DNA from: Squalus acanthias
Taxonomy: Eukaryota
Assembly (NCBI GenBank): GCA_030390025.1
Contig: CM059431.1
Span: forward strand, 124,932,001 to 124,996,000
Direction: 5' to 3'
DNA: 64,000 nucleotides
This document shows positions 5,509-58,620 of this stretch, piece by piece (within the stretch, counting starts at the first letter, position 1; every line of letters starts with the position of its first letter). The notes under the pieces were generated by a model. It had not been told where the DNA came from, searched no databases, and saw only the letters and a program-made list of their open reading frames with translations. Position numbers and translations under genes: made by a program.

Positions 5509-6108
5509 AACACCAACCGTCTCCACAATCAATTGATGCTGCACAGGACACAGGGCATCAGCACTTGACCACATTGCTGCCCGGGAGGCTAGGGATGGCC
5601 AGATTTACTTCACTTGATGCTGTACACCCACATGATGCGCCAGGTTGGCACCACCCCACACCAACAACATAAAGCACCCCTACAGTGCCCAAGCCATTCC
5701 TTTTACACTCATCACCATTGCGGGGAGTACTGTTATGTCTCACCATTCACTGCAACTCACTAAGCCACTTCCAAAGGTGCACACAAATCTGTCCAAGAAC
5801 ACAAAGTGTTGAAAATAAAGGTTTCAGTGTTTGGCACCACATTAACAGAAACTTTACATGAACATTGCAAAAACACCCAAGTATCTACCCTTGTGTGTTG
5901 TTAGTTGTTATGATTGCACTATAATGAGGGTGAGTGTGAGGGGTGGCTAGTGAGATGGGATGTGATAATGTAGATAGAGAGGGATATGTGGAGGTGCAAG
6001 GTAAGTTGGTGTGAGTAAGGATGTGCAGGAGTGGGATAGGGAAGGCAGAGTGATGGGGATGTGATGAGAGGCACAGTAGGATGAGGTTGAGTATGGCTTT
6101 GTACTAAC

Positions 6109-6348
6109 ATTTTGTGATCTACTGAGATAATTGAAATGTTTGCGGCACTGCAGCCTGGTCCTCCTGACCACATCCCTGTTTGTGCCCTCCTCGGCAATGT
6201 GCAACCAGACTGTGTTGATCTTCTGGGGAGGTCTCTTCCGCCCATTGGAAGGGAAGGGGACCCCCCTGTGTGCGGTGACTCCCTCCATAAGCATATGGAG
6301 GGAGTCATGGGAGAGACTGGGTGCAGCCCTGCACCTCTGTGCAGTGCT
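6109..6348 (-). pseudogene. Harbinger Myb/SANT-like protein exon 1 remnant
   Basis: AAPSLSHDSLHMLMEGV..FPSNGRKRPPQKINTVWLHIAEE..RTRLQCRKHFNYL followed by a GTTAGT donor. Confidence 0.75.
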
Positions 6349-7106
6349 TGTCAGTGTTTTCAGCACCTCAATGCTGTAGAACACTGACAGCACAAATGTC
6401 AAAGTAAAGTTGGCCATGGTCCCTTTAAGGAAACCGGCTGATGACGCATCATCAAATGACGTCACCAGACCTGCTTCCTCTAATTGTCCGGCAAATGCGC
6501 TGGGCGGGCTTAACAAGTCCAATCTGGGGAAATTCATTTCAGTGGCCCGGATGAGACAGCAGCGGGGTCGGGACCCACCACCGACATCGCCCGCCACAGA
6601 CCCGCCGAGGTTCGTAAAATCGCGGCAATTGAATTCTGGCTACTGACTTACTAACCAATGGAAAAACATTTGTAACTGTTCACCCTCTCAAAACCTTTCA
6701 TAATCTTGAAAACATTGATTGAATCTATTTAATCTACTATTTTCCAATAAAAAAAAACAAATTGGGGCAGAGGTCATTTCCACTGGTTTTTTGCCCCAAA
6801 ATTGATGTGCCCGTGTTTACGATTACATTTTGCACCTTCTCGTCATCCTCCACATGAGTCTCAACAGAGCTCATTTAAATAAACTAAAATGAGGACCAAT
6901 GGTGCTAGAAATTTCTGAGGTTATGCTCGCATTGCACTGGACTAACTTACAACACAACTTATAAGATGTATCTATTGGTGGTATCAAATGAGATAGGTGG
7001 AAGTGAGGAATTTCTGAGCCTGAAGAATACAGAAACTTTGAGAACAGATTACTAGAGATGGGAAAGAATTTTTGGAGCTTTTATTTTTGCTTTGGTACTG
7101 GATCTT

Positions 7107-7920
7107 TGTAAGAAATCGTGGATTGAAAGAAATAATAGTCTGTTAGGGGTTCCCTAGATCAGCAGTTTGCCTAATTTGATGACACAGAAAGATTCCAGTC
7201 ACGTCAGAAAAATAGCTGTACAGAGAGTTGAATTGCAAGGTCAGAACACAAAAAACAGGCCTTCGAGTGGGCATAACTAGGCCTGATATGGGATGTAGCA
7301 AGGATAAACAAGCTGTCTACAAAGAGGGCAACAAGACCTTTAGAACAGAGATAAGGAGGAAAATGACCTCATGAGGCTGGGAGGGGGCTGTCATAGTAGC
7401 CTCTCCCTTGTAATTGGACAATAGGATGGGGTACAAATGATTGACACCAGGTATCCACCAGCCCACCGAAATAACTATAAATATAGACCACCAAGAGAGG
7501 AAATCAGACAGCGAGGGGCGAAGGCTTCTTCGAGGTGGAAATCAATGCTGGCTCAGGCCTAACACCTTGACAAAGTTTAGCCTCTGAGGTGGATCAATGC
7601 TGGTTTATGCCGAACACCTCCAACAGCTCGAGGGACGAATCAACAGAAGTGACTGCTGTTACTGGCTGCAGAGACCCGCTGACCCGAGACCTCCACGCTG
7701 TCTCACCAGACATCTAACCAACCGTCCGTCCGGTCATGGCATTCCAATTCGGGAGTTGGAGATCGCTCTCTACTGTCACGGGTTGTATGTCTATTATACT
7801 CAGCTTAAACCATATGTAATATCTGATTATGCTTTAAAACTGTAGCTCTTTAATAAAATGCCTTGCAACTCCTAAGGCTCTTTGGGTAATCTGTGTGTGA
7901 CCTGTGATCCTAATTTTACA
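7107..7920 (+). repeat. 5' LTR (814 bp)
   Basis: TGTAAGAAATC...CCTAATTTTACA, with CTATAAATA TATA-like motif (~7477) and AATAAA (~7852). Direct repeat of 14395-15216. Confidence 0.95.
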
Positions 7921-7921
7921 G

Positions 7922-7939
7922 TGGTGTCAGAAGTGGGAT
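7922..7939 (+). promoter_or_regulatory. Primer binding site, tRNA-Leu
   Basis: TGGTGTCAGAAGTGGGAT one base after the LTR, complementary to the tRNA-Leu 3' end ...ATCCCACTTCTGACACCA. Confidence 0.9.
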
Positions 7940-8054
7940 CACAGAGTTAGGAGTTGTGAGGTTCTGGTTGGGGAGATCAGAGGGTGTTGTGTTTTTTTCT
8001 CTCTGATAGAAGGGAGCGGGAAAGAGCGTGTTGAAAGGTAAAACCAGAAATACA

Positions 8055-10448
8055 ATGGCGTTGGCATATCATCGAGAATTATTAATAGACAGTTTGGCAG
8101 AAAAAGTCGGTAAGGCTGCAGCCACGGGCGTTCAAGGAATTTTAGAAGATAGCAGCGGGCACTATGATTGCATTCTTGACAAGCTTTTGGCTGGCATCCA
8201 CCAAAACAAACTTAAGCTGAAAAAAGGCCGGGATCAGTTGGCGTACGGGGCACACTTATGTGCTGCGCAGCTAAATCAGGAGGTTAAAGGGTTAAGGGAG
8301 TCAATATGCCGGCTGCAGCAGGACACTCTGCGCTCCGCACCCAGCTGTCCCGGGAGCAAAGAGAACATGAGAAAACACAGCGTGCCCAAAGGAAGCTGGA
8401 CCAGATCCTAGACAACGACATTGAGTTACAGGCAGAGAACCGTAGGTTGAGAGAGGAGTTGGAAGATGCGAGGGGGCAGGAAGGGAACTGAATCGACAGC
8501 AAAGCACTGATTCCCCCGGGGCAGACCACGCCCTGTGCCTAGAAACAATCCTGCAGCTTCAGGCACAAATTGGCCAACAGCGAACAGTAGTGGCTGCTGT
8601 TTCCAAAATTAAACCGGCAGATCCCAACTCTTGTTGGGACGGTTTGGGACAGAGCCCTATTCCCACTGCTCCACCTTCGTTGTGCAGGGGGCTGAGGCAG
8701 GCAAGGTAGATGAGGCAATGCCAGTGTATGTGGTCATCCGATCAAAGGCAGAACCGGAGCCCAGGGAGGAAGCAGGCGAGGCGACCCCCTCAAGCACTAG
8801 TAGGATAGAAACAACTACCCGACGGCCCCTTACTGCGGTCAAGGTCGGGGCACTTAAAATTAACTTGGGAACGAAGGGAGTCCACACTGACCCCCTCGAG
8901 CTCAGGCAGCGGTGGAGGAATTTTAAAATTACACATCCAGAACTAGGAGGGAGCGACCTTAAACAGGTCCTCCTGGAGACATGTTCCATGGAACTGAAGC
9001 AAGACATGGGTCAGGGCATTTTAGAAGGGGGCGATATTGAGGCTATTGAGGCTGAACTATGCCGAGTGTTGGGGGAGGATAGCCTCGACTTCCACCAACT
9101 CCTCGCCAACACCAAACAGAGCCCTACTGAGAGCCCCAACACTTTCGGGCAGAAACTCCACAATATCTTTCAGCGCACCAGGGGGGGAACAGGGGAACAC
9201 ACGACAACCCGGGCTTCAAAACCCTCTTCCTTAATGGCCTCCAACCATTGGTCTGCAACGCGCCAGGCGTTTACGTCTTTAAAGACACCAGGTGCAGCAA
9301 GTGATTAAGAAGGCAAATGGAATGTTGGCTTTCATTGCTAGGGGGATAGAATATAAAAATAGGGAGGTATTGCTTCAGTTGTACAAGGTATTGGTGAGAC
9401 CGCACCTGGAATACTGCATACAGTTTTGGTGTCCTTACTTAAGGAAAGACATACTTGCTCTCGAGGCAGTGCAAAAAAGGTTCACTCGGTTAATCCCGGG
9501 GATGAGGGGATGGACATATGAGGAGAGGTTGGGTAGATTGGGACTCTACTCATTGGCGTTCAGAAGAATGAGAGGCGATCTTATTGAAACATATAAGATT
9601 GTGAAGGGGTTGGATCGGGTGGATGTGGGGAGGATGTTCCCGATGGCGGGTGAGACTAGAACTAGGGAACATAGTCTTAGAATAAGGGGCTGCTCTTTCA
9701 AAACTGAGATGAGGAGGAACTACTTCACTCAGAGGGTGGTAGGTCAATGGAATATGCTGCCACAAAAAGCTGTAGAAGCTACATCATTAAATAAATTTAA
9801 AACAGAAATAGACAGTTTCCTAGAAGTAAAGGGCATTAAGGGTTACGGGGAGCGGGCAGGAATTTGGACATGAGTCTAGGTTCGGATCGGTCATGGCCCT
9901 GTGGGTAGTGGAGCGGGCCCAGGGACCGTGTAGCCTGATTCTGCTCCTATTTCGTGTGTGCAATTCTGTTAGATGCAGGAGATGGTTCTGTGATAGTAGA
10001 TAGTAGATTGGCGGTTAGGATCAGATCAGCCATGATCTTATTGAATGGCGGAGCAGGCTCGAGGGGCCGATTGGCCTACTACTGCTCCTATTTCTTATGT
10101 TCTTATGTTAACTGGGAAAAATTGCAGACTCGCACCCAGGCTGCGTGGGACCAGACCCGTGCCAGTCTCCCCCAAGGCGCAGTAGCGGCCGTTGAAGGCC
10201 CGCTGCCTAACCAGAGGTCAGGGGAGCCCAGAACATCCGCGCCAGGGAAAAACCGCTCAATACGCTGCTATCTCTGCCACCGCCTAGGCCACTGTGCCCG
10301 TCAATGCTACAATTCCCCAAGGCAGACAGGCCCCGACCCAGTCGACCAGAGGCTTGAGAGTGTGGAGGTAGCCCCAGCCGCCCTAAGCACCAGTCAGAAA
10401 GGCCTACAACAGCAGAATGGGTCATTTCCATCGCCACCCGCGCTATGA
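8055..10448 (+). pseudogene. gag: gag (frameshifted, CR1-interrupted): N-terminal coiled coil, capsid-like region, CCHC zinc knuckle
   Basis: ORFs 8028-8411, 8306-8491, 8631-9308 and the 3' part of 9954-10448. CYLCHRLGHCARQC knuckle at ~10266-10308. Confidence 0.85.
9291..10108 (+). mobile_element. CR1 LINE 3' fragment inserted in gag
   Basis: LYKVLVRPHLEYCIQFW...RRMRGDLIETYKI...; tail TTCTTATGTTCTTATG; gag reading resumes afterwards (NWEKLQTRTQAAW). Confidence 0.95.
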
Positions 10449-11262
10449 CTCCCACAGGTAAAAAGGGGAGGGGCGGCTTCCCCTCTCCAACACAATGGTC
10501 ACGGGAGGCCGGTAGTCCGCACTGTTGATTCGGGAGGCCATCAACAACTAATGCTGGTCGACTCTGGGTCCTCTGTCACCATCATCCACGATCCCCACCC
10601 CGACCCCACAAAGGGTGTGCCCCAGCTTCTATCAGGTTTCTACAATTCAACCCAGGTGACCATACAAGGGACCCTTTCCATTGTATTGGACATAGCAGGG
10701 GCGCAGGTCGTGGTTCAAATCCCCATCTATATGTCTATGCATACCGGGCAGGGAATATTAGGTAGCGATGTGCTCAGCAGTCATCAGGCAGTGGCTGACT
10801 ATGCCAACAATTGTATCTGATGGAACCTTCAAAATGGACCCCCCACACACATTCGGTATTCGCGATTAAAAAATCAGAGGACTACGAACCAGCCACCTCT
10901 GCAGACCCGGAAGTCCGGGCGATCCTAGAATCAGTCCCGGGAGTATTCACAACCCACAAACATGATTGCGGAGGCATAACCGAACCCGAGGAGATTAACG
11001 GTCCGGCCCACGCCCCTGTAAAACAATACTCATACTCGGCCAAGAGTAGACCATACATTTGAACTACCATCGAGTCATTGTTAAAGCAGGATGTTGTCCG
11101 CAAAGGCACATGTACAACTAACTCCTCCGTCTGGCCAGTCAAGAAGCCAGATGACAGTTGACGGTTAACTATCGACTACCGCAAGCTCAACTCAGTCACC
11201 CCCGTGTGTGTTCCGGTGGTTCGGGAGACACCCACCCTACTCTCCCAGATTCCCAGTGGCAG
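10449..11262 (+). pseudogene. pol: Aspartic protease and 5' part of reverse transcriptase (pol truncated)
   Basis: LVDSGSSVTII and GILGSDVL protease motifs. RT start VFTTHKHDCG..VKQY..NSSVWPVKKPDDS*RLTIDYRKLNSVT. Similarity stops before the YxDD motif. Confidence 0.88.
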
Positions 11263-11581
11263 TAAATCAGTACAGAATGAGATTCAGTAGAAAACATCAG
11301 AAATTGAAAATTGGCTTAAGGGAGAAATGATAAAATAGTTATGATAGAATAAAGGAGAAAAGGGAAGATCATGTCTCTTTTCTGCTGTTCTGCAGGTTTT
11401 TATTTGTTTTCAGTGTGAATGTTAATGTCTTTTTACAAAGCCTCTATGAATGTTTAAGAAGAATGTGCGAATAAGATTGTGCACCCGGAATTGAAAAAAA
11501 AAAACTTTGAACGACAATTTAAGTTAAGCTGGTGTGGAAAAACTGAGAAAAACAAAAAAAGTTTGTTTAACAAAAGATTAA

Positions 11582-12426
11582 GGGCAGAATTTCCATTGAG
11601 CCGTGGAGACGGGTTTGGAGGCGGGACTGGATTGAAAATAGCTGAATCGGGGGTCCCAACCCCATCCCGCCCCCAACCCGCCTCCATGCCAGTTTCGCTG
11701 GAGACGGGTATCCGACCTGTGCTGGGACCCGCCTCCCTGAGGCGGGAAGGGGATTAGTGGCAATAAACTGCCTGTTAACAGGTAGTTAACAGGCAGTTTT
11801 TTGCCTAATCCCTATTTTTATGCCTGAAATGTGGGCTCTCCGACAGGTCCGAACCACGCTGTTTCAGCGAGGCAGACCGTGGGTCTGCAGGGGTTGGAGG
11901 GGTCGATATGTCCGGTGGGCAGGTGAGTGATGGGTGCATGTGTGCAGAGGTAAGTGTGTAAGGTAAGTGTAAAGTGTGGAAAAAAGGTTTTACTTACCTT
12001 AACTTCCTCCTGCAGGCGTCAGCCCTTCAGGTCTCGGGAGTCAGAAATCTCACCGGCACAGAAAGCAGAATGGCCGTTGAGCTGTCAAAAGCTGCAGCCT
12101 CTGCTTTTTGTTCTGCAGAGAGCTCTAAATCAGCCTGAGAGGAAGGAATTAACTTAGAGTACAGATTGTCAGTGTTTGACAGCTTCAAAGAGCTGTCAAA
12201 CGCTGATATTTCATCTGTCAAAAGCTCTTGACAGATGAAATGTCAATCTGTGATGTCACCTGTTGCCGGGTGGCCCTTAATTGGCCTGCTGAGCCCACTG
12301 GGCGGGCTCAACAAGGTCAATCAAGTGAAAATACAGTGGGTTGGCCACAAGTCGATGGAGGCGGGACTACAACCCAAAAAGTGGGAGTCCCGACTCCATC
12401 CCGTCCCCAGTTTCAAAATCCAGCCC
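11582..12426 (-). mobile_element. Non-autonomous Harbinger, family A copy 2, inserted in the provirus
   Basis: TIRs GGGCAGAATTT / AAAATCCAGCCC, perfect TAA TSD (11579-11581, 12427-12429) and the family hairpin TCATCTGTCAAAAGCTCTTGACAGATGA. Confidence 0.9.
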
Positions 12427-13539
12427 TAAGTTTCAGTCTAAGATGTAACCTTGGAGTCGCGGTTGGTATGGTGAAATTTTCCAAAGCAGTTTGATTTGTT
12501 TTGTTTAAATGTGAAAACTAATTTTTCTCCAGTTGTATTCAGTATTTTACAGTCATTTGAAAACGCATCTGAAGAAAGAACAAAGTGAAATATTACGTAA
12601 CTTATTGTGTTTTTTTTGTTTTATTTTCTGTTCTGTATCGTGTTTAGTTAATAAGAATATTTGCTCGCCGCATTATAAACCTGCAAAGGAGTTAACCCTT
12701 TCTGCTGGCAGCTGTTTTTTTTAAATTGGTTCACCAAACAACTTTGATCTAAGTTTTCTATCTTCAATATTGTATTGGACAGTAAAGTTTCTCCAGACGC
12801 TCATGAATGAGATAGAATCTGGTATTAATGGGAATTTTCATTCTAGTGAAAGTCAGGAAAGTGTAGTTACGAATAGTAAATTGATAGCTTTCTCTTGGAG
12901 ACATTTGTGACATTGCCTATAATGAACTTTTAAAGAAAATTGAATTTGATAGTCCGGCCACTACCAAAGACATCGGGACCATGCAGAGGAAGATGAGCAA
13001 AGATCTCCAGACAATCTTTTGATAGGATCACCTGAAAGCCCGAGAATGGCTTGTATCGGATGGCACGTGTGGCACGATATTGAGATACCGATATGAGTGT
13101 GCAAATGTGATTTGTTATGTATGAAGCAATTACCATCCACAAATGAAGAACGGCTCTCAGACATGCTCAGTTACTTGACAACAGCAAGACATGAAATGGT
13201 TAATGTGGCTCAGGAGAGCGAGACAACTTTTAAAGCATTGACACATACTCCATCGAGAAACTATCTAATTAATGAAACAATCAGAATAGAGTTAAACACA
13301 ATTAGAGGGATTGACATTGAAGTTGAAGTGGAGAGTTACATGGAATTTGGATTGGGACAATTGAGGGCCAAGGAGAAATTATGTTTAGTAAGAATTATCC
13401 ACAAGATGGATACGAGTAAAAGAGATCTGGAGAATCTTTGAAGTCCATGATTTGTTGATTAGATGTTAAACTGTAATGTCGCTTGAAATGATTGTAAGAC
13501 TGAATTTAACTGTGACTGTAATAATTGTATTTTGTTGGT

Positions 13540-14258
13540 AACAGAGCGTGGAAAAAACCAGTACAAATCCAGTATGAGGTGGTTTTGGTGATGCCTCCTG
13601 TGTCACTACTACTGCAACTACCATGCTTTATGGGTCTAACAGGACCTGTCCCATCAAACAACATATTTTACTCAATATCAAAACCTATGCGCAGGTGAAA
13701 CTGACAGTAAATGAGATACTTAAGTATGAGCTGCACAATTATGTGGCACAATTCGGATAATACATCCCCTTGTTGTCTAAGGGCTTCAGTGAGCTCTTGA
13801 GGTGACTGAACCCCTCCCTAAAGCATTTTTATGTTTTGGAGCAAGACAACTCGAGAATGGATATTGAAATTGACAGCATAGAGGACAACTCACACTGGTG
13901 GGATATTGGGCTTAATACATCAGCACACCCTTAGGTTTGTATTATTTCACACGCTCTGGTAGTTCTCCAACTTGTAATGATAGTGTATTTGATATATGTA
14001 ACCTGTGTAGTAAGACTTTGATGCATAAGCCAATTGGGTACTCATGCCTATGACTAACCAGCACCAACAAATTAATTGAGCACACCGAAAGAGAAGATCC
14101 GAAGCAATGTAGAGGAGACCCCAGGCGGGGTAAGATCAGGAAAGATAGAAGAAACAGAGGATACCCCAGGCGGGGCAGAATTGGAACACCGGAACAGTGA
14201 ATTGAATTTGATTAAGGGGTCAGAGGTTGCTCCTCCCCCTCAAAGGAATGGACTGTAA
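13540..14258 (+). pseudogene. env: env-like remnant: Cys-containing segment, heptad region, WWD, transmembrane helix, cytoplasmic tail
   Basis: Hand translation gives SCVTTTATTMLYGSNRTCPI, then from 13695 VKLTVNEILKYELHNY...DNSRMDIEIDSIEDNSHWWDIGLNTSAHP*VCIISHALVVLQLVMIVYLIYVTCVVRL*. ORF 14076-14258 is in the same frame. It lies just upstream of the PPT. Confidence 0.7.
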
Positions 14259-14382
14259 GAAAGGAGGACATCTTCATTTTCGAGACTCCCTACTAACTAA
14301 CGCCCAAGTTGAGAGAGCAAAAATAACTTGCTAGATTAGTCAAGAGCCGATTGTGAGAAGTCAATAAGGATATTTCCTTCTC

Positions 14383-14394
14383 AAGGTGGGGAGA
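14383..14394 (+). promoter_or_regulatory. Polypurine tract
   Basis: AAGGTGGGGAGA immediately before the 3' LTR TG. Confidence 0.8.
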
Positions 14395-15216
14395 TGTAAG
14401 AAATCGTGGATTGAAAGAAATAATAGTCTGTTAGGGGTTCCCTAGATCAGCAGTTTGCCTAATTTGATGACACAGAAAGATTCCAGTCATGTCAGAAAAA
14501 TAGCTGTACAGAGAGTTGAATTACAAGGTCAGAACACAAAAACAGGCCTTCAAGTGGCATAACTAGGCCTGATATGGGATGTAGGAAGGAGCTGTAGGAT
14601 AAACAAGCTGTCTACAAAGAGGGCAACAAGATCTTTAGAACAGAGATAAGGAGGAAAATGACCTCATGAGGCTGGGAGGGGCCCGTCATAGGTAGCCTCT
14701 CCCTTGTAATTGGACAATAGGATGGGGTACAAATGATTGACACCAGGTATCCACAAGCCCACCGAAATAACTATAAATATAGACCACCAAGAGAGGAAAT
14801 CAGACAGCGAGGGGCGAAGGCTTCTTCGAGATGGAAATCAATCCTGGCTCAGGCCTAACACCTTGACTAAGTTTAGCCTCTGAGGTGGATCAATGCTGGT
14901 TTATGCCGAACACCTCCAGCAGCTTGAGGGACAAATCAACAGAAGTGACTGCTGTTACTGACTGCAGAGACCCGCTGACCCAAGACCTCCATGCTGTCTC
15001 ATCAGACATCTAACCAACCGTCCGTCCGGTCATGGCATTCCGATTCGGGAGTTGGAGATCGCTCTCTACTGTCACAGGTTGTATGTCTATTATACTCAGC
15101 TTAAACCACATGTAATATCTGATTATGCTTTAAAACTGTAGCTCTTTAATAAAAAACCTTGCAACTCCTACGACCTTTTGGGTAATCTGTGTGTGACCTG
15201 TGATCCTAATCTTACA
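14395..15216 (+). repeat. 3' LTR (822 bp)
   Basis: Near-identical to 7107-7920 apart from scattered substitutions and small indels. Ends CCTAATCTTACA. Confidence 0.95.
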
Positions 15217-15339
15217 TATTGTTTCATTTGCCTTTGACTGTCTAATAGACAGTCACATCCCTGAGATATTTTGCTCCCACCCACAGTGAGGTTCTCACGA
15301 CCAGATCTGAGATTCCCAATGTGCATTCCTGTGTTTGGC

Positions 15340-17932: not shown

Positions 17933-18280
17933 ACATCTTCACTTAGAGGATATGATTGACACCTTTAAGAAATGTTGTAGCTGTGAGACCCATTGGAAGG
18001 CATCTGGGTTTAGTAGCTGCCATACCAGTCTTCCATGCTGCATTACTGGCACAGTTGCTAATTCTTTGTTGCAATTTTCAACTTCTTACTTTGTTATCCT
18101 GATCATGCCGAGAAGTCTTTTGTAAGACACAGACATGGAACATGCAGCAGTTAACTAAAATTATATTTGCTGCCTCTGATTGGTCAAAGATGTGAACCAA
18201 AAGCACTTTTGATCATTCTGGTTGTAGCATGAGCTTTGTTACACCTGGGCTCTGCTTCTGATCATGGTTGGTGCTTGATC

Positions 18281-20828
18281 AACAGTGAGAGGGAGATAGA
18301 AGAGCAAATATGTAGACAAATTTCTGAGAAGTGCAAAAACTATAGGGCAGTAATAGTAGGGGATTTCAACTACCCCAATATTAACTGGGATAAAATTAGT
18401 GTGAAGGGTATAGAGGGTACGGAATTCCTAAAATACATCCAGGAGAACTTTTTTAGCCAGTATGTAGCAAGCCCAACAAGGGAGGGGGCGGTTCTGGATT
18501 TAGTTTTAGGGAATGAAGCTGGGCAGGTAGAAGGCGTATCAGTGGGGGAGCATTTTGGTGCTAGTGACCATAATTCAGTTAGATTTAAGGTAGTTATGGA
18601 AAAGGACAAGGATAGACCAGGAATAAAAATTCTAAATTGGGGAAAAGCAAATTTTGCTAAGCTCAGAGGGGATTTAGCCATAGTGGACTGGAAACAGCTA
18701 CTTGAAGGTAAATCAGTGTCAGAGCGGTGGGAGGCATTCAAAGAGGAGATCCGGAGGGTTCAGACCAAATATGTGCCCTTAAAGAAAAAGGTGGGACTAA
18801 CAAATCTAGAGCCCCCTGGATGTCTAGGGACATACAGGGTAGGATAAAGAAAAAAAGGGAGGCGTATGACAGACACCGAGGGCTAAATACTCCAGAATCT
18901 GTAGAGGAGTACAGAAAGTGCAGGGTGCAATTAAAAAGGATATTAGGAAAGCAAAGATAGAGCATGAAAAATTATTGGCAAGTAAAATCAAGGAAAACCC
19001 AAAGATGTTTTATAAATATATTAAGAGTAAGAGGATAACTAAAGAAAGGGTAGGGCCTATTAGAGATCATGAGGTTTATCTGTGTGTGGAGGCGGGAGAC
19101 ATTGGTAGGGTTCTTAATGAATACTTTGCGTCTGTTTTCACAAAGGAGAGGGGCGAAGCAGACATTGCTATCAGGGAGGAGTGTGAAATATTAGATGAAA
19201 TAAACATAGTGAGAGAGGAAGTATTAAGGGGTTTAGCAGCTTTAAAAGTGGATAAATACCCAGGCCCGGATGAAATGTATCCCAGGATGTTAAGCGAAGC
19301 AAAAGAAGAAATAGCAGAGGCCCTGACCATCATTTTCCAATCCTCTCTGGCTTCAGGTGTGGTGCCGGAGGTCTGGAGGACTGCTAATGTGGTACCCTTG
19401 TTTAAAAAGGGAGCAAAGGATAGACCGAGTAATTACAGGCCAGTCAGCCTAACCTCGGTGGTGGGAAAATTATTGGAAAGAATTCTGAAGGACAGGATAA
19501 ATCTTCATTTAGAAAGACATGGATTAATCAAGGATAGTCAGCACAGATTTATTAAGGGAAGGTCGTGTCTGACAAATTTGATTGAATTTTTTGAGGAGGT
19601 AACAAGGAGGGGAGATGAGGTTAGTGCGTTTGATGTAATGTATATGGACTTTAGCAAGGCTTTTGATAAGGTTCCACATGGCAGACTGGTCACGAAGTTA
19701 AAAGCCCATGGGATCCAGGGCAAAGTGCCAAGTTGGATTCAAAACTGGCTCGGAGGCAGGAAGCAGAAGGTAATGGTTGATGGGTGTTTTTGTGACTGGA
19801 AGGCTGTTTCCAGTGGGGTTCCGCAGGGCTCAGTACTAGTTCCCTTGCTTTTTGTGGTATGTATCAATGATCTAGACTTGAATATAGGGGTATGATTAAG
19901 AAGTTTGCAGATGATACTAAAATTGGCTGTGTGGTTGATACTGAAGAAGGAAGCTGTAGACTGCAGGAAGATATCAATAAATTGGTCAGGTGGGCAGAAT
20001 AGTGGCAAATGGAATTCAATCCGGAGAAGTGTGAGGTAATGCATTTGGGGAGGGCTAACAAGGAAAGGGAATACACATTAAATGGCAGGACACTGAGTAG
20101 CGTAGAGGAACAAAGGGACCTTGGGGTGAATGTCCACAGATCCCTGAAAGTAGCAGGCCAGGTAGATAAGGTGGTTAAGAAGGCATACGGAATGCTTGCC
20201 TTTATTAGCCGTGGCATAGAATACAATAGCAGGGGGGTTATGCTTCAACTGTATAAAACACTAGTTAGGCCTCAGCTAGGGTACTGCATGCAGTTCTGGT
20301 CACCACATTACAGGAAAGATGTGATTGCACGAGAGAGGGTACAGAGGAGATTTACAAGGATGTTGCTGGAAGTAGAGAATCTTAGCTATGAGGAAAGACT
20401 GGATAGGCTCGGTTTGTTTTCCTTGGAACAGAGGAGGCTGAGGGGAGACCTTATTGAGGTGTATAAAATTATGAGTGGCCTAGATAAAGTGGATAGAAAG
20501 GACCTATTTCCCTTAGCAGAGGGGTCAAAAACCAGGGGGCACAGATTAAAAGTAATTAGTGGAAGGTTTATAGGGGATTTGAGGGGAAATTTCTTCACCC
20601 AGAGGGTTATGGGGGTCTGGAACTCACTGCCTGAAAGGGTGGTAGAGACAGAAACCCTAACCACATTTAAAACGTACTTGGATGTGCACTTGGGATGCTG
20701 TAACCTGCAGGGCTACGGACCAAGAGCTGGGAAGTAGGATTAGGCTGGATAGCTCTTTGTTGGCCGGCTTGGACACGATGGGCCGAAATGCCCTCCTTCT
20801 GTGCTGCAACTTTCTATGATTCTATGAT
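18281..20828 (+). mobile_element. 5'-truncated CR1 LINE (partial endonuclease + RT pseudogene)
   Basis: VGDFNYP, SDH, NYRPVSLTS, DFSKAFDKV, GVPQGSVL and FADD motifs over frameshifted ORFs. Tail TTCTATGATTCTATGA. Confidence 0.96.
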
Positions 20829-27605: not shown

Positions 27606-30600
27606 TCAATTACCCTTAGTGGCTATCCTATAAGTGCTCTTGCTTACTCTGGTGCTTCTAAAAAGTGCAACCCAAGTGGCAGCAGCAGGCGAGGTGCATG
27701 GCTGCTGAGATAGTGAAGAAGGCAGTTCAGATGTCCTCTTGGGATGCCCGCGAGAGGCTGTCGGCCATGATTGCCCCGCCTCAGATTGCACCATCTGCAC
27801 ATGGGCTTGAGAAGTCTGGGCCGCCTGGCTGACAGGCAACTGCAAGGGCAATGGTGGAGTGGCGGGGGAGGGAGCAAGAATGCTGCCATCCGGATAGAGG
27901 CCAGTAGTTTCCTGCTCCATGATTTCCATGCTACTACCTCGGGGCGTCTTTTCAGCTGGAGGACAGATCTACGAGCAGCTGCGACCCTCTGCAAGCCCCT
28001 TTCAACCGAGGAGCCCAGAGTCACCATAGCAGTTGTTTGAGTTTCCATTGCAGCACCTTGCCGTTCCATGAAAGGTGTAAGTAGTGCAATGGAAGCTATT
28101 TGGGCTTCCATTGCAGCACCTTGTCTTTCCATGGAAGCTGCCATAACTGCAGTGGAAGCTGTGACCTCAGTCATCAGATGTTGCATGATGTTGGGCTCCA
28201 CAGGTTGCCGGATGGAATTGGCTAGCCTCTCCACGCTGGAGAGGATGGGTTCCAGGCTCTGCGTCAAGCCATGGCCAAGCTGGAGGTAGACTCCTCCATC
28301 CCCCTAGCCAAAACCCGTAAGCTTTCAAGCAGGCTGTCCATTGCACCAAGCATATGGTTTGTCAAACCCATCAGCCTTCTTCTGAAGCTTGGCCCTGTCA
28401 GGACCTCATCTGATTCCTCTACAGCAGAACTAGTATGCAAACTCAAGCGACACTTACTCACACATAACCTGTGCACCGATGCTCAGTTTGGGTTCCACCA
28501 GGAGCACTCGGCTCCAGACCTCATTACAGCCTTGGTCCAAACATGGACAAAAGAGCTGAATTCCAGATGTGAGGTGAGAGTAACTGTCCTTGACATAAGG
28601 CAGCATTTGACCGAGTGTGACATCAAGGAGCCCTAGTAAAATTGAAGTCATTTGGAATCATGAGGAAAACTCTCCACTGGCTGGAGTCATACCTAGCACA
28701 AAGTTGGATGGTTGTGGTTGTTGGAAGCCAATCATCTCAGCCCCAGGACATCGCTGCAGGAGTTCCTCAGGGCAGTGTCCTAGGCCCAACCATCTTCAGC
28801 TGTGTCATCAATGACGTTCCTCCCATCATAAGGTCAGAAATGGGGATGTTCGCTGATGATTGCACAGTGTTCAATTCCATTCGCAACTCTTCAGATAATG
28901 AAGCAGACCATGTACACAACAGCAAGACCTGGACAAAGTTCAGGCTTGAGCTGATAAGTGGCAAGTAACATTTGCGCCACAGAAGTCTAACCACCGTCCT
29001 TGAGGTTCAATGGCATTACCATCGCCAAATCCTCCACCATCAACATCCTGGGGGTCACCATTGACAGGAAACATAACTGGACCAGCCATATATATGCTGT
29101 GGCTACAAGAGCAGGTCAGAGGCTGGGCATTCTGCACCTGCTGACTCCCCAAAGCCTTTCCACCATCTACAAGGCACAAGTCAGGTGTGTGATGGATTAT
29201 TCTCCACTTGCCTGGATGAGTGCAGCTCCAGTAACACTCAAGTAGCTCGACAATATCCAGGACAAAGCAGCCCACTTGATTGGCATCCCATCCACCAGCT
29301 TAAACATTCACTTCCTCCACCACTGGCACACCGTGGCTGCAGTGTATACCATCCACAAGATGCACTGCAGCAACTCACCAAGGCTTCTTTGACAGCACCT
29401 CCCAAACCCGCAACCTCTACCACCTAGAAGAACAAGGGCAGCAGGCACATGGGAACACCATCACCTCCAAGTTTCCCTTCAAAGTCAACCATTCCTGATT
29501 TGGAGATATATTGCCGTTCTTTCATCGTTGCTGGTTCAAAATCCTGGATAACCCTCCATAACAGCACTGTGGGAGTATCTTCAGCACACGGACTGCAGTG
29601 GTTCAAGAAGGCGGCTCACCACCACCTTCTCAAGGGCAAGTAGGGATGGGCAATAAATGCTGGCCTTGCCAGCGGTGCTCACATCTCATGAACGAATAAA
29701 AAAAAAGGTGGCCCCTGTGGTGTCCCTTCCACCCGGTGTGGCTGCTACGCACTAGTGCCTGCTGCGTGCGACTGTGAGGATTCGTGTTCTACCCTAGCCT
29801 CTAAGTTACACGTGAGCCAGTCTCTGAGCTGGTGCCTGCAAGAGTGGTAGACATTGACGCAGTGCTATCTTCCTCGCTTTCCTCCACCTCCTCCTCCTCA
29901 TCCACTGAGGGGGGGGGGGTGGGGGGGGGCGAGGTGACTCCTCCTCCTCTTCCAGTTCCTCCAGGGGGCGAGGTAGATCTTGCGCCTGTGAGCCTGCAAT
30001 GATAAAGCTAGAAGGGTTATGGTTCAGCGAGTGTGGCCACCATAGGAGGATGTAGGTGATGAGACCATATGGAGCTTGTGATTGAGGATGGGCTTGGGGA
30101 TTAGGGATCAGGAATAGTTGTTCATATGTAAGGAAGCTTGAGTGCCCACATACCTCTATGCGAGATGTCCCTTGCTGTGCCTGTGACCACGACGTCTGCC
30201 ACTCCCCGTCTGATCGCCACCAGCACTGCCTCTTCAAGGGGTATGATCTCATGCAGTCATGCTTCCCCTCCCCCAGTCAGGTTTTGCTGGTGCCTGTTAT
30301 GTGCTATCTTGTCCTGGAAGAGAAAGAGTGGTGATTGTGAATGAGTGTAATGGCAGGTGTGTTTGTGTGTGATGCCTTAGATGGCTGAAGAGCTGTGAGA
30401 TGTGTCTGAAGTGTGAGTAGTGCCTGTGAAGGATGCAATAATGTGGAGTGCATGAATGTTAGATTGTAGATGGTGAATGCAGTGTGTTGAGCTTGTGATG
30501 CTGGTGGTGGTGATGCAGTTATTGAGAAGTGTGTTTCTGAGATGTGATCTTACCTTGACTGGACCACTTGTGTCAAATCATTAAATTTCCTGCAGTGCCA

Positions 30601-30940: not shown

Positions 30941-33800
30941 TCAGTACCCTGTACCTGCCTTCTCCCCATATCCCTTGATACCTTTAGCTTTAAGAAATAT
31001 ATCTAACTCATTCTTGAATATATTTAATGACTTGGCCTCAACTACCTTTTGTGGTAGAGAATTCCACAGGTTCACCACTCTCTCAGTGAAGAAATTCCTC
31101 CTCATTTCTGTCCTAAATGGCTTACCCCTTATCCTTAGATTATGACCCCTGGTTCTGGACTCTCCGACCATCGGGAACATTCTTTCTGCATCTAGTTTGT
31201 CCAGACCTGTTCGAATTTTATATGTTTCGATGAGATCCCCTCTCATTCTTCTATATTCCAGCGAGTATAACCCAATCGACCCAATCTCTCCTCATATGTC
31301 ATTCCTGCCATCCCAGGTATCAGCCTTGTGAATCTTCGCTGAACTCCTCCATGGCAAGAACATCCTTCCTCAGATAAGGCGACCAAAACTGCACACAATA
31401 CTCAAGGTGTGGTCTCACCAAGGCCCTGTACAACTGCAGCAGGACATCCCTGTTCCTATACTCAAAACCTTTCGCTATGAAGGCCAACATACCATTGTCC
31501 TTCTTCATCACCTGCTGCACCTGCATGCTTACGTTCAGCGACTGGTGCACAAGGACACCCAGGTCTCGTTGCACTTCCCCTTCTCCCAATCTATTGCCAT
31601 TCAGATAATAGTCTGCCTTTCTGCTTTTGACGCCAAAGTGGATAACCTCGCATTTATCCACGTTATATTGCATCTGCCACGCTTCTGCCCACTCACCCAA
31701 CCTGTCCAAATCATGCTGGAGTTTCTCGGTATCCTCCTCGCAGCACACACTCCCACCCAGCTTTGTGTCATCTGCAAACTTGGAGATATTACATTTAGTT
31801 CCCTTATCTAGATCATTAATGTATATTGTGAATAGCTGGGGTCCAAGGACCGATCCCTGCGGTACCCCACTAGTCACTGCTTGCCACTCGGAAAAAGACC
31901 CATTCATTCCTACTCTTTGCTTTCTGTCCGCCAAACAGTTCTCTATCCAAGTCAATACCTTGCCCCCAATCCCATGTGCCTTAATTTTACACGCTAATCT
32001 CTTATGCGGGACCTTATCGAAAGCCTTTTGAAAGTCCAAATACACCACATCTACTGGTTCTCCCTTATCTATTTTCCCAGTTACATCCTCAAAAAATTCC
32101 AGTAGATTAGTCAAGCACGATTTACCTTTTGTAAATCCATGTTGACTTTGTCCGATCCTGTCACTGTTTTTCAAGTGCTCAGCTATTACATCCTTTATAA
32201 TGGACTCTAGCATTTTCCCCACTACCGATGTCAGGCTTACCAGTCTGTAATTCCCCGCTTTCTCTCTACCACCCTTTTTGAATAGTGGGGTAACATTAGC
32301 TACCCTCCAATCCATGGGTACAGTTCCAGATTCCATCGAATGTTGGAAGATGATCAGCAATGCATCTACTATTTCTAGGGCCACTTCCTTAAGTACCCTA
32401 GGATGTAGATTATCAGGCCGTGGGGATTTATCGGCCTTCAATCCCGTCAATTTCCCTAACACCATTTCCCTGCAAATACTGCTTTCTTTCAGTTCCTCCC
32501 TTTCATCAGACCGTATGTTCTCCAACATCTCTGGGAGGTTATTTGTGTCCTCCTTTGTGAAGACAGAACCAAAATATGCATTTAATTGGTCTGCCATTTC
32601 TTTGTTCCCCATTATAACTTCCCCCGCTTCTGACTGCAAGGGACCTACACTTGATTTCACTAATCTTTTTCTCTTCACATATCTATAAAAACTCTTACAG
32701 TCAGTTTTTATGTTCCCAGCAAGCTTACTTTCATATTCTATTTTCCCCTTCTTAATTAATCCCTTTGTCCTCCTTTGTTGAATCCTAAACTGCTCCCAAT
32801 CCTCAGGGTTACCGTTTTTTCTGGCCAATTTATATGCCCTCTCTTTGGATCTTATGCTATCCCTAATTTCCCTTGTTAGCCACGGTTGAGTCACCCTTTT
32901 TGTTTTATTCTTATGCCACACTGGGATAAACAAATTCTGTAGTTCATCCATGCAGTCTTTGAATGTTTGCCATTGCCTATCCACCGTCAACCCTTTGAGT
33001 GACATTCCCCAATCAATCCTACCCAATTCGCGCCTCATACCATCGTAGTTTCCTTTATTTAAATTCAGGACCCTAGTCTCTGATTCAACTACTTCACTCT
33101 CCATCCTAATGAAGAATTCTATCATATTATTGTCACTCTGACCCAAGGGGCCTCGTACAACAAGATTGTTAATTAATTCTTTCTCGTTACATAATACCCA
33201 GTCTAAGATGGCCTGATCTCTGGTTGGTTCCTCGACATATTGTTCCAGAAAACCATCCCGTAAACATTCTAGGAATTCGTCCTCCACTGTATTTTTACTA
33301 AGTTGGTTAGTCCAATTTATATGTAAATTAAAGTCACCCATGATGACTGCTGTGCCCTTACTGCATGCTTCTCTAATTTCCCTTTTAATGCCATCCCCAA
33401 CCTCCGTATTACTGTTTGGAGGTCTAAATACCACTCCCACTAATGTTTTCTGCCCCTTGTTATTTCTCAGTTCTACTCATACAGATTCCACATCATCAGA
33501 GCTAATATCCTTCCTTTCAATTGTGTTAATCCCCTCTTTAACCAGCAATGCTACCCCACGTCCCTTTCTTTTTTGCCTATCTTTCCTGAATATTGAATAC
33601 CCCTGGATGTTGAGTTCCCAGCCTTGGCCACCCTGGAGCCATGTTTCTGTAATCCCAATCAAATCGTATTCATTTACCTCTATTTGCACAGCTAATTCAT
33701 CCACCTTGTTCCGAATGCTCCTTGCATTGAGATACAAAGCCTTCAGGCTTGTTTTTTTAATGCTCTCAGACCTATATGAATTATTATTTACTGTGACCAT
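30941..33800 (-). pseudogene. CR1 ORF2 (APE endonuclease + RT), with few disablements
   Basis: ORFs 33477-33800, 31320-33440 (706 aa) and 30941-31246 carry YLNARS, ITETWL, GDFN, DFQKAFDKV and FADD. One stop at ~33477 and a frameshift near 31345. Confidence 0.93.
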
Positions 33801-33922
33801 GTTTGGTTTAAACCAATGAGTTCTTCGCCTTCTAATTTTGTTTTTCTCCTTCCTGTCTTTTGCTTTTATCCTTGTTTCCCTTTCCTCTGTCTGCCTGCTC
33901 AGGTTCCCAACCCCCTGCCACT

Positions 33923-34873
33923 TTAGTTTAAACCCTCCCCAACAGCACTAGCAAACACTCCCCCTAGGACATCGGTCCCGGCCCTGCCCAGGTGCAGTCC
34001 GTTCCGTTTGTACTGGTCCCACCTCCCCCAGAACCGGTGCCAATGTCCAAGGAATTTGAATCCCTCCCCCTTGCACCATTCCTCTAGCCATGTATTCATT
34101 TGAAATATCCTCCTATTTCTACTCTGACTAGCACGTGGCACTGGTAGCAATCCTGAGATTACTACCTTTGAGGTCCTATTTTTTAATTTACCTCCTAACT
34201 CCCTATATTCTGCTTTTAGGAACTCATCCCGTTTTTTACCTATATCGTTGATGCCTATGTGCACCACGACAACTGGCTGTTCGCCCTCCCCCTCCAGAAT
34301 GTTCTGTAGCCGCTCTGAGACATCATTGACCCTTGCACCAGGGAGGCAACACACCATCCTGGAGTCTCGTTGACGGCCGCAGAAACGCCTATCTATTCCC
34401 CTTACAATTGAATCCCCTATCACTATAGCTCTTCCACACTTTTTCCTCCCAGCCTGTGTAGCAGAGCCACCCATGGTGCCAGGAAGTTGGCTGCTGCTGC
34501 CTTCCCCTGATAAGTCATCCCCCCCAACAGCATCCAAAGTGGTATATCTGTTTGAGAGGGGGATGGCCACAGGGGACCCCTGCACTACCTGCCTGCACCT
34601 CTTACTCTGCCTGGTGGTCACCCATTCACTTCCTGCTTGTACACCCTTTACCTGCGGTGTGACCAACTCTCTAAACGTGCTATCCACGACGTCCTCAGCA
34701 TTGCAAATGCTCCAATATGCATCCATCCGCAGCTCCAGCGCCGCAATGTGGTCCATCAGTAGCTGCAGCTGGATACACTTCCCACACACATGATCGTCAG
34801 GGACACAGGAAGCGTCCCTGATTTCCCACATATAGCAGGAGGAGCATAACACAGGGCGGAGCTCTCCTGCCAT
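33923..34873 (-). CDS. CR1 ORF1p (zinc finger/leucine zipper + SGNH esterase-like domain), 316 aa
   Basis: CSSC..CGKC followed by a leucine zipper; esterase blocks VIGDSIVRG, CLPGA, VHIGINDI, NGLHLG. Confidence 0.92.
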   Translation of the reverse strand: MAGELRPVLCSSCYMWEIRDASCVPDDHVCGKCIQLQLLMDHIAALELRMDAYWSICNAEDVVDSTFRELVTPQVKGVQAGSEWVTTRQSKRCRQVVQGSPVAIPLSNRYTTLDAVGGDDLSGEGSSSQLPGTMGGSATQAGRKKCGRAIVIGDSIVRGIDRRFCGRQRDSRMVCCLPGARVNDVSERLQNILEGEGEQPVVVVHIGINDIGKKRDEFLKAEYRELGGKLKNRTSKVVISGLLPVPRASQSRNRRIFQMNTWLEEWCKGEGFKFLGHWHRFWGRWDQYKRNGLHLGRAGTDVLGGVFASAVGEGLN

Positions 34874-35135
34874 GACTTACCCTTTAATTAACTAATTAAA
34901 ATTAAATTAAATGAATCCCACCAATTCCACTTCAATTAAATGATATACTCAAGGGCCCTTGTTTAACAGCAGTCCCCGCTACACCACAGAGACTCGAGAA
35001 ACTATAAACCACAGAATTTAAGTAGGGAAAAAGGAGAAAGAGAGAAATACTCACCAACCAATCACTTACCTGCTTTCTGGTGACGTCACACTTCGATTAC
35101 TTTTTACTTCTGTCTCCCGTTCTGAGATTGGTAAA

Positions 35136-38740: not shown

Positions 38741-39848
38741 AATGTAAATTCTTTTTTCCTTTGTGGAGAGAGCATTCATCAGGCCCCTTACCCCTTCCCC
38801 ACTGTGAGGACACGCTCAAGACTCTGGGGAGACCTAAGGAACAGGCAGTCAGAGATGGAGAAGTAGGAGGATTCATGGTAGTTGATGGTTAATCACCCAG
38901 TTGCAAAGTATCAGTCCTGGACATCACCAAGACCACAAACTTTGAAAAGCCCTTTACCTACAACTGGATTAAACCTCTTCAGCAACATGGTTATAGAATT
39001 ACCTAGCGCTCGATGTCAGGATGAGGGAGTCATGGAAGAAGAGGAGACTGTGGTTGTTGAACGAAGGGTCCGGTGATGCCTTCCCAGCTTGAGGAGTCAG
39101 TGAATCCTGATTTTGATAGCCCTGTATTTAAATGAAGGATGCAAGCAGAGCTTTAAACCTTTTAGGAAGCTCTGTGTTCAGCCTCCCATTAAGTGCAGCA
39201 ACTGTCAGGGCAGGTAAACAAATCCACTACTGATTTTTGGTCTGAAATAAGGGAAGGCTTTCAATCACTACAATGTAGCCATTGCAAGAAGGACTGCAGA
39301 CTATGTCCCTACAAAAGATGCTCCTGGGATAGATGTTGATTGCTGTCTGGGCTCTAACCTTAGGCAACCAAGGGGTTTCTTGTTGATTTAAGACAGAATA
39401 GAGAGTACATTTGACCATGGCTGAACTGACATCTCTCAGTGCCCTCAGTGATCTCATAGATGCAATGTCAGGAGCGAGTGGAAAGGAAGCAAGGTCCAGG
39501 GGTGAGACCTCTGTCTGCCTGGATAGCAGGAGACCCAAGAGTATAATCCTGTTCTTTCAAGGGTTATTATTACAAATTCAGGTTTGCCGTAGATACCTTT
39601 TCAGGTTCAGTGACATCAGCTGCTCCTGTAAGCAATCTGAGTGACTTATTTTTATGGGAGCTCACTCATACAGCTCTATATCTACTTCTACAATAGCATA
39701 ATCTGGGAGTGTGAAATTTGTACCCTCCTGTTACCTGAACTGGATATTCATGTCTTTCTCATGCGCACTTTTTCAATCTCTCTGCAGGCAGACTGAGCAG
39801 ACGCTTAGTGTAAGATTCTAAAAAAATGTAATAAAACCGATGCTACCA

Positions 39849-40768
39849 TGTGGAGATCGGAATTATGAAATGGTAAAGGAGGAACTCAAAATGTAGGAAG
39901 TCAGCATGTGTTCCTTTGTCTGTGAGGACACAAAATGGAGGAAGTCAGCAGGTGGTCCTTTGTTTGTGAAGACACAAAATGGAGGAAGTCAACATGTGTT
40001 CCTTTGTCTGTGAGGATACAAAATGGAGGAAGTCAGCAGGTGGTCCTTTGTCTGTGAGGACACAAAATGGAGGAAGTCAGCAGGTGGTCCTTTGCCTGTA
40101 AGGACTCAACATGGTCAGCATATGGTCCTTTGTTTGTGAGACCACATGGACAGGAAGGAGACACACTGGATGAAGAGGAAGTCCCGCCCCCACACACATC
40201 ACAGGAACATGAACGTGTCATGCAGAAGGAACTCCAATCAGGGAAGGTTGGGAGTGAAACTGATCTATCAGAGGGAGGCAGACGAAGAACTATGAGCGGG
40301 GCCAGCAGAAAGGCATTATAAAGGAATGACCCAGAAGTGGGAATTTCAGAAGAAGAAGAAGTGAGAGACAAAGAGGGACAAAGGAAGCGGTTTGACTGGC
40401 CAGTCTACATTTCCAACCTACTACTTTTTCCGGACTGATCACCCAGGGGGAACTGTATGTATGGAAGTCGGACACATTGCATAGATATTGCTAAAGAGTA
40501 CTTTTGTGTACGGTTGACTGTGGGCATATGGAGTGCCGAGCATTAGCATAAATTGTGGAGATGCTTTTATGTACGTTTAGCTAAACTGTGTAGCATATTG
40601 ATTGCGAGGGTGCTTCTATGTACTGCTTGAATAGTGGTTGGGGTTTTGAATCTGTCTTAGGAACAATAAAAGGTTAAAGACAGAACCCGTGTGTCTGGTG
40701 TAATTTCTCATAAGTCTCAAGTCCGAACTCTATAACCTGTTGGACGGGGCGAGGGATAATTCCGCACA
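39849..40768 (+). mobile_element. Probable solo LTR (~920 bp)
   Basis: TG..CA ends with imperfect inverted termini (TGTG..CGGAATTAT / ATAATTCCGCACA), TATAAA at ~40316 and AATAAA at ~40665. No clear TSD. Confidence 0.6.
39888..40150 (+). repeat. 44-bp tandem array (~6 copies) in the putative U3
   Basis: Unit AAAATGGAGGAAGTCAGCAGGTGGTCCTTTGTCTGTGAGGACAC at 39888, 39932, 39976, 40020, 40064, plus a degenerate sixth copy. Confidence 0.92.
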
Positions 40769-58550: not shown

Positions 58551-58620
58551 AATATTTCAGTTGAGATCGGACCAGTGTTATATAAAGGCTTATCATAACT
58601 TCCTTGCTTTTGTACTCTAT

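Follow-up and report, generated by a model that had tools for sequence, protein, structure and literature searches.

Endogenous retroviruses (ERVs) related to snakehead retrovirus (SnRV) have already been published from sharks (PMC4422223). The nearest described one, CmiERV lineage I from Callorhinchus milii scaffold 2, clusters with SnRV (Han 2015, PMC4422223), has a full-length pol and carries, as judged by eye, a gamma-type Env with an immunosuppressive-domain motif and CX6CC. SnRV itself, an exogenous virus, is intact and has accessory ORFs; its gag and pro-pol share one frame with a single stop between them, and its Gag has one CCHC box and a coiled-coil region. Lokiretroviruses (Wang and Han 2020, PMC7947760) have the order LTR-gag-pol-env, an F-glycoprotein-like Env and aquatic vertebrate hosts, and encode a tether, an RNase H, a CGIN1-like integrase and an optional smc; they were found in none of six chondrichthyan genomes (PMC7947760, Fig. 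S1). The Env of foamy viruses is also F-type or F-like (PMC11468914), and a foamy-like clade of shark and Xenopus tropicalis elements has been described (PMC5512871). Incongruence between Pol and Env in anamniote ERVs has likewise been reported (10.1101/2021.11.23.469661).

In a 64-kb stretch of Squalus acanthias DNA (64,000 nucleotides, the window), a preliminary description made from the letters alone had proposed a lokiretrovirus-like provirus. The proviral structure is real, with LTRs, PBS, gag, protease, partial RT, env remnant and PPT (Table 1). Its affiliation is another: the element is most likely a dead SnRV-like ERV ('clade Huo', class III-related) that lies near CmiERV lineage I and resides in the genome of a cartilaginous fish. 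Both LTRs carry the TGTAA...TTACA ends, and the tRNA-Leu PBS and the PPT directly 5' of the 3' LTR stand as described. The proposed 4-bp target-site duplication (TSD) is not an exact copy, three of its four bases agreeing (TCTT vs TATT). The LTRs differ by a K2P distance of 0.0355 (28 mismatches in 812 aligned columns, 4 indels), similar to the 0.033 of CmiERV-I; this corresponds to 8-81 Myr, depending on the rate (rates from PMC4422223). CmiERV-I and SnRV each use a PBS other than that of the query.

Table 1. Features of the provirus and its insertions (positions are those of the window)
Feature	Position	Strand	Remarks
Putative 4-bp TSD, left flank	7103..7106		TCTT
5' LTR	7107..7920	+	814 bp; TATA-like box near 7478, AATAAA near 7854
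PBS, tRNA-Leu(CAA)	7922..7939	+	18/18 bases match the complementary probe (probe start in PMC7997516)
gag 5' part	8055..9289	+	several frameshifted pieces; N-terminal stretches charged and coiled-coil-like
LINE 3' fragment inside gag	9290..10109	+	about 820 bp; 5'-truncated; RT C-terminus, 3' UTR, short-repeat tail
gag 3' part	10110..10448	+	one CX2CX4HX4C; single in-frame stop before pro
Aspartic protease	10449..10838	+	DSG at 10560; gag frame; one internal stop, then frameshift before RT
RT N-terminus	10850..11266	+	139 codons; two stops; similarity breaks off sharply at 11266
AT-rich non-coding stretch	11267..11581	+	31% GC; directly after pol break
MITE in 3' part	11582..12426		845 bp; GGGC...GCCC terminal repeats, TAA duplication
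Stop-broken stretch	12430..13586	+	AT-rich, then protein-like frames; possibly decayed upstream env
env remnant	13587..14015	+	3 stops in 143 codons; frame runs on with more stops to about 14255
PPT	14383..14394	+	purines at 11 of 12 positions
3' LTR	14395..15216	+	822 bp
Putative TSD, right flank	15217..15220		TATT

The coding remnants agree in layout with SnRV-like elements. The single CCHC knuckle assigned to gag was verified by direct reading of the sequence (10266-10307), and neither the knuckle nor the gag pieces gave a Pfam match at E<=1. The long coiled coil claimed for the Gag N-terminus is spread over several frames; as a putative feature it is plausible from composition and from likeness to SnRV Gag. 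SnRV Gag is weakly matched by the 5' part (9164-9262, E 0.048) and the SnRV knuckle region by the 3' part (E 0.058). As in SnRV, gag and pro lie in one frame split by a single stop (10446-10449). This one-frame arrangement of gag and pro-pol is common to gamma- and epsilonretroviruses and is not exclusive to SnRV-like ERVs. The DSG protease is borne out by a Pfam RVP match (E 0.00083, falling slightly short of the curated cut-off) and by 36% identity to the protease of a relative. The RT start is retrovirus-like, as had been said; it gave no Pfam match at E<=1, is 57% identical to an X. tropicalis Pol (P0004) and, by eye, is identical to CmiERV-I at 58 of 102 residues. CmiERV-I also shares a cartilaginous-fish host, a DSG protease, one CCHC and a charged Gag N-terminus, all noted by eye and not computed. 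Protease and RT are spaced by about 193 codons here, 197 in SnRV and 197-206 in five relatives.

The RT phylogeny points to a classical ERV class (SnRV-like/class III-related), the outcome that would speak against the preliminary proposal. The trees used 63, 29 and 36 reference proteins hand-picked to span the groups, with mammalian foamy viruses in place of fish or shark foamy-like ERVs and without CmiERV-I, CmiFLERV and XtrFLERV, and rest on 139-142 residues, or 30-41% of the tree columns. Loki references were identified through a match to Dataset S2 of PMC7947760, and the SnRV reference (L001) through a match to the paper's 'SnRV' RT and its 10,688-nt length. The query fell in a 3-row clade (100/98) and an 8-row clade (92/91). 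The latter is shared by the nearest database relatives, the amphibian and coelacanth ERV Pols P0004 (X. tropicalis), P0007, P0008 and P0020 (frogs) and P0021 (Latimeria), which are 39-57% identical and, unlike the query, full-length. The Gypsy references formed a separate 100/100 clade, leaving the query outside Metaviridae (Ty3/Gypsy). SnRV, 39% identical in RT, joined the query clade strongly in one of four trees (SH-aLRT 99, quick tree); in the other three its position was weak or unresolved (an open fork in one, support of 39/75 and 103 of 300 bootstraps in another, SH-aLRT 68 in a quick tree). The blastp bit scores of the fragment were 150 to P0004, 89.7 to SnRV, 57-73 to lokiretroviruses, 52-59 to foamy viruses, 51-55 to ERV-L-like and 32-37 to gamma proteins. 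Two identities considered for P0004 were rejected: Loki-Xtr, because two P0004 motifs are absent from the part of the supplement available and P0004 groups apart from the lokiretroviruses, and XtERV-S, for which PMC8278194 gives YIDD vs YVDD in P0004.

Two secondary insertions, a LINE fragment and a MITE, had gone unnoticed and make up 1.67 kb of the 8.1 kb. The LINE fragment, which we take to be CR1-type, is 73% identical to a LINE elsewhere in the window (30954-31523), whose ORF carries endonuclease and RT domains. The MITE, presumably PIF/Harbinger-like, has copies of 68-73% identity at 1924-2722 and 50385-51196 of the window. Both elements entered the provirus after its integration: the LINE-free joint (9289>10110) and the MITE-free joint (11578>12427) were each found in four of four runs of public contigs.

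This copy lacks about 85% of pol and has kept little of env. A tblastn search of the 64-kb window with 10 Pol relatives found no remainder of RT, no tether, no RNase H and no integrase, and GC falls from 55% to 31% across the pol break. The preliminary description had also suggested spread as a non-autonomous derivative; indels at a possibly shared break and a contrast in depth point the same way and leave this plausible, if unproven. A 1-nt indel at 11264, where RT breaks off, is carried by contigs of all four public runs (7, 3, 5 and 12 contigs) and hints that the break is shared, bridging of the break by at least 31 letters per side not being among the evidence for a shared junction. At most 0.26 of the words are present in these runs, so the contigs represent relatives and not the query locus. 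Summed contig depth, which does not equal copy number, is 8,136-82,185 in the bins of 12458-14394 and mostly 140-1,434 over gag-pro-RT, two protease-region bins in runs X6 and X7 reaching 13,000-56,000.

Stop codons bear on the same question. With half the LTR distance, a simulation that slightly underestimates the expected count gives 0.23 stops for env and 0.19 for RT; the observed numbers are 3 (P about 0.002) and 2 (P about 0.015). LTR gene conversion is a possible alternative cause of excess stops. The cis signals (LTRs, PBS, PPT) are kept. Under non-autonomous spread, the lineage would have lost pol and undergone much of its env decay before the last copying, and would have spread on its LTRs, PBS and PPT with RT and integrase supplied by relatives that still had pol; we consider such spread in trans moderately likely. 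Somewhat unlikely is the alternative that an SnRV-like provirus integrated intact and lost pol later at this locus, with no spread in trans. An LTR distance of 3.5% leaves time for a deletion and two insertions, the number of stops in the protease agrees with decay after insertion (P about 0.2), and in run X5 one contig (record 10) departs from the stretch at 11250; against these stand the several contigs per run with an indel at the break, the excess of env and RT stops and the far greater depth over the 3' part. Metagenome scans gave 0 matches, the second confirming none of 159 candidates, and Rfam gave 0 matches.

A further alternative, which we regard as unlikely, is that the element is a recombinant in which a low-copy SnRV-like gag-pro-RT and the 3' module of another, high-copy family of env remnants were joined by template switching, so that Pol and Env have no common ancestry. 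The tenfold to hundredfold rise in depth beyond about 11380, the drop in GC at the break and the other Env type of the closest published Pol relative are what it would explain. The LTRs, however, are a matched pair, and no joint between the leader and the 3' module is among the joints listed (332 further joints were unlisted).

The region before the PPT had been described as a TM-bearing ORF. It has no open frame (7 stops in 206 codons), and env similarity is confined to the remnant, in which a Cys-rich ectodomain end, a membrane-proximal helix, a WWD motif and a TM segment can be recognized. An exhaustive protein search with the remnant gave 6 matches at E<=3e-4, of which the five named are all chondrichthyan, whereas a word-indexed search confirmed 0 of 170 candidates; against the env family profile the remnant reached an hhalign probability of 99.2. 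The remnant itself has no Pfam match. Its relative P0014 matches Baculo_F (E 0.0011), and in a feature comparison the relative P0016 lies nearest the Baculo_F (0.94) and Fusion_gly (PF00523, 0.93) clusters, with a low recognition value (1641). As judged from these sequence comparisons, the remnant does belong to a chondrichthyan family of predicted F-glycoprotein type, the type of the measles virus and RSV fusion proteins. A single-sequence AlphaFold model of P0016 was unusable (pLDDT 34.7), and a search of PDB sequences with the env profile brought up no F protein, its 9 matches being antibody chains and a transporter (E 0.2-1.2). Neither the env profile (E 0.094 and 0.63) nor Pfam or PDB sequences matched the stretch at 12430-13586 significantly.

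The C-terminal half of SnRV Env likewise falls with Baculo_F (0.92) and Fusion_gly (0.90) in the feature comparison. Since SnRV Env is also F-type by features, an F-type Env is not diagnostic of lokiretroviruses. SnRV Env, of 1134 aa, is not confidently alignable to the shark env family (probability 2.7 against the shark profile). No statement of an F-type SnRV Env was found in the literature searched, though Calcraft et al. (2024) may cover it. CmiERV-I has a gamma-type env vs the F-type env of the query, implying env exchange within the clade.

Assignment to the foamy-like ERVs of the shark/frog CmiFLERV-XtrFLERV group is very unlikely. The best PDB sequence matches of the RT fragment are foamy RTs (E 8e-11); PDB matches include no SnRV-group RT, so foamy viruses may rank first by default. 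The foamy Env is F-like, and the shark and X. tropicalis hosts of the published foamy-like clade pair as do the query and P0004. On the other side, foamy viruses formed a clade of their own (100/100), and the AU test rejects a grouping of the query with six mammalian foamy viruses (p 0.0046). The CCHC in Gag and pro in the gag frame are both unlike foamy viruses as characterized in PMC8278194, and the close match to CmiERV-I also argues against this assignment.

That the element is a lokiretrovirus, which would be new for cartilaginous fishes given the previous 0 of 6 genomes (PMC7947760) and would extend the lineage to them, is largely refuted and extremely improbable: it shares the F-type env family, a hallmark reported for lokiretroviruses (PMC7947760), and general motifs of the RT start, but F-type Env occurs also in foamy viruses (PMC11468914) and, by features, SnRV; the query RT lies apart from the loki clade (100/100) in four of four trees and inside Retroviridae proper, the AU test rejects query plus loki (p 0.0046 and 0.0014 in two tree sets), none of 300 bootstrap trees joined the query with loki or foamy viruses, RT scores are below those to SnRV-group proteins, and the protease-RT spacer has roughly a third of the length of the 578-605 codons in lokiretroviruses. 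Spacing of about 600 residues was seen here in four of the seven loki references whose protease motif could be detected, and is not a published criterion. This copy has lost the regions that would correspond to the loki tether, RNase H, integrase and smc.

An F-like Env does not by itself make a fish provirus a lokiretrovirus, and the label is corrected here to a probable SnRV-like ERV. If the F-type Env of the shark family and SnRV holds structurally, it bears directly on the four scenarios of env origin that Wang and Han left open (PMC7947760), and it documents env exchange inside a single Pol clade of cartilaginous fishes. We tentatively entertain a wider possibility: an SnRV-like lineage of cartilaginous fishes would carry either gamma- or F-type Env, the F-type, common to foamy viruses, lokiretroviruses and the clade of SnRV, would be the ancestral retroviral Env later replaced by the gamma-type, and a pol-less module with the dead F-type env would have been multiplied in trans to very many copies in several species of shark or ray. 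Taken as a single locus, the provirus is an ordinary decayed ERV.

The element is a real, heavily decayed SnRV-like (snakehead retrovirus-like) shark endogenous retrovirus with an F-type env remnant, and not the lokiretrovirus that the preliminary description had proposed. In this defective provirus pol is truncated and env is broken, and two further elements inserted later; its cis signals (LTRs, PBS, PPT) are retained and look intact. Both LTRs (814 and 822 bp) start with TGTAA and finish with TTACA, the PPT lies directly upstream of the 3' LTR, and the PBS agrees at all 18 positions with a probe complementary to tRNA-Leu(CAA) (PMC7997516). The reported 4-bp target-site duplication is recognizable, with one mismatch (TCTT versus TATT). 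The LTR pair shows 28 mismatches over 812 aligned positions (21 transitions) and 4 indels (K2P 0.0355); two rates used in PMC4422223 convert this to 8 or 81 Myr, so the element is not demonstrably young.

The single CCHC knuckle described in gag was recovered (CX2CX4HX4C), in what proved to be a frameshifted gene. A single in-frame stop terminates gag ahead of the DSG protease, which was confirmed by Pfam (RVP, E 0.00083). Pol would be produced by read-through of this stop, as outlined for gamma-, epsilon- and class III elements in part of PMC8278194. RT similarity breaks off at 11266, and tblastn with 10 Pol relatives found no more pol in the window beyond this fragment.

Features of the provirus and other repeats (window coordinates)
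Feature	Position	Strand	Remarks
Provirus	7107-15216		LTR-bounded element
PBS	7922-7939		
LINE 3' fragment	9290-10109		nested in element
RT similarity	10850-11266		
MITE	11582-12426		nested in element; 845 bp, TAA duplication
env remnant	13587-14015		
MITE relatives	1924-2722, 50385-52343, 5947-6639		
CR1-type LINE copies	18233-20737, 44609-45187	+	
CR1-type LINE copy	31320-34876	-	RT/endonuclease ORF2 piece; ORF1 with GDSL-esterase domain
Another non-LTR retroelement	41464-42978, 28443-29706		two copies, 86-90% identical; 504-aa RT frame in the second
Tandem duplication	54387-61394		~3.3 kb, 87-92% identity; no assigned family
Charged, repetitive frames of the duplication	56714-57490, 59618-60646		similar frame at 27644-28303
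Tandem array	39843-40158		44 bp
Inverted repeat	49930-50129		99 bp, near-perfect, 2-base spacer
Dispersed repeat	206-588, 53414-53806		93-94% identical

The top database match of the RT fragment is a Xenopus tropicalis Pol (P0004, 57%). A search with the RT region of that protein returned 188 proteins, and references were drawn from the best 120 of them; 6 of 17 fetched foamy genomes were included. Four trees (64, 30, 37 and 37 rows) were built, in which the ERV-L-like, gamma and Gypsy labels are presumed, following database names. The query, P0004 and P0006 formed a small clade in every tree (support 98, 99/98, 100/98 and 98), which fell inside the retroviruses proper and outside the loki, Gypsy, gamma, ERV-L-like and foamy clades. 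Among the proteins listed, P0027 matches 'SnRV' and P0034/P0035 match 'Loki-Lca' of Dataset S2 (PMC7947760, in part), and P0037-P0043 cluster with the latter at support 100.

Grouping the query with the six mammalian foamy viruses was rejected (AU p 0.0046). Two tests likewise rejected a grouping with lokiretroviruses (AU p 0.0046 and 0.0014). The architecture agrees with a placement outside the latter: the distance between the protease motif and the RT WPVxK motif is ~193 codons, close to SnRV (197) and five relatives (197-206), whereas lokiretroviruses have 578-605 (motif found in 4 of 7 references). None of the 6 chondrichthyan genomes in PMC7947760 (Fig. S1) yielded a lokiretrovirus, a record that this locus leaves unchanged.

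SnRV attaches strongly to the query clade in one tree (SH-aLRT 99) and weakly in the other three (open; 39/75 with 103/300 bootstraps; 68). A further tie to the SnRV-like group of the literature comes from CmiERV scaffold 2 (Callorhinchus milii lineage I), which grouped with SnRV in PMC4422223 and whose RT, by manual count, shares 58 of 102 residues with the query. All major vertebrate lineages are known to harbour SnRV-like ERVs, and a chimaera is among the hosts (PMC6001957, PMC12193657).

The supposed TM-bearing ORF is interrupted by 7 stops in a frame of 206 codons. The residues encoded at 13587-14015 match a chondrichthyan env family (hhalign probability 99.2) with six relatives, of which the five named ones are all chondrichthyan (Heptranchias, Rhinoraja, Pristiophorus, Heterodontus, Chiloscyllium), so that a shark-type host, as first read, is a reasonable call; longer members have a furin-like site as well as a heptad region, Cys-rich domain and TM segment. 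By language-model features, the clusters closest to the relative P0016 are Baculo_F (0.94) and Fusion_gly PF00523 (0.93), and its 10 best family matches all share a family or clan, although the recognition value is low. A PDB sequence search with the env profile and a single-sequence model of P0016 gave no structural confirmation of an F fold. The C-terminal half of SnRV Env points to the same families (Baculo_F 0.92, Fusion_gly 0.90), and foamy Env is structurally F-like (PMC11468914, in part), so F-type Env is not specific to lokiretroviruses. An ancestor may have carried an F-type fusogen. In contrast to the element, CmiERV-I, which is the nearest relative of its Pol in the literature, shows a TM that on manual reading is of gamma type (immunosuppressive-domain motif, CX6CC), indicating that env types vary within the clade. 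Pol/Env incongruence is already known in anamniote ERVs (10.1101/2021.11.23.469661, in part). The novelty here lies in a CmiERV-I-like Pol occurring together with an F-type env and a tRNA-Leu PBS, and in the hint of an F-type SnRV Env, for which no statement was found in the literature searched.

In two database proteins, P0013 and P0014, pieces of the env family are embedded in shark gene predictions named cadherin-related 5-like and fbxo15, which reflects either fused annotation or exonisation of env. Contigs from four public sequencing runs of three coded organisms show further internal env-region deletions at 13489-14294, for example the joint 13489>14142 in 2 of 4 runs, which suggests sub-families.

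Non-autonomous spread, as first proposed, is on balance the somewhat likelier history of this lineage: it would have been copied in trans by RT and integrase from relatives. Besides the retained cis signals, contigs with a 1-nt indel at the RT break (11264) occur in all four runs (7, 3, 5 and 12), none with demonstrated bridging by 31 letters on each side; one contig, among the joints and loose ends listed, departs at 11250 instead. Summed depth, which is not a copy number, reaches 8,136-82,185 in nine bins over 12458-14394, against 140-1,434 across gag-pro-RT, where two bins of runs X6 and X7 are the exception. Stops exceed the numbers predicted from half the LTR distance in env (3 versus 0.23) and RT (2 versus 0.19), with no excess in the protease (1 versus 0.23), but LTR conversion could imitate such decay. 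No run shares more than 0.26 of the words, which also counts against spread in trans.

The X6/X7 exception is a depth spike of 13,000-56,000 at 10298-10729 (loose end 10502), confined to organisms B and C, where part of the protease region may have been captured in another repeat.

Both nested insertions had been overlooked. The LINE-free joint 9289>10110 and the MITE-free joint 11578>12427 occur in contigs of all four runs, so both insertions are secondary. We take the LINE to be a CR1 and the MITE, presumably, a PIF/Harbinger element. A frame adjoining one MITE relative resembles by eye a piece of Harbinger transposase, with no Pfam match, and a weak Myb-like match (E 0.0037) lies elsewhere.
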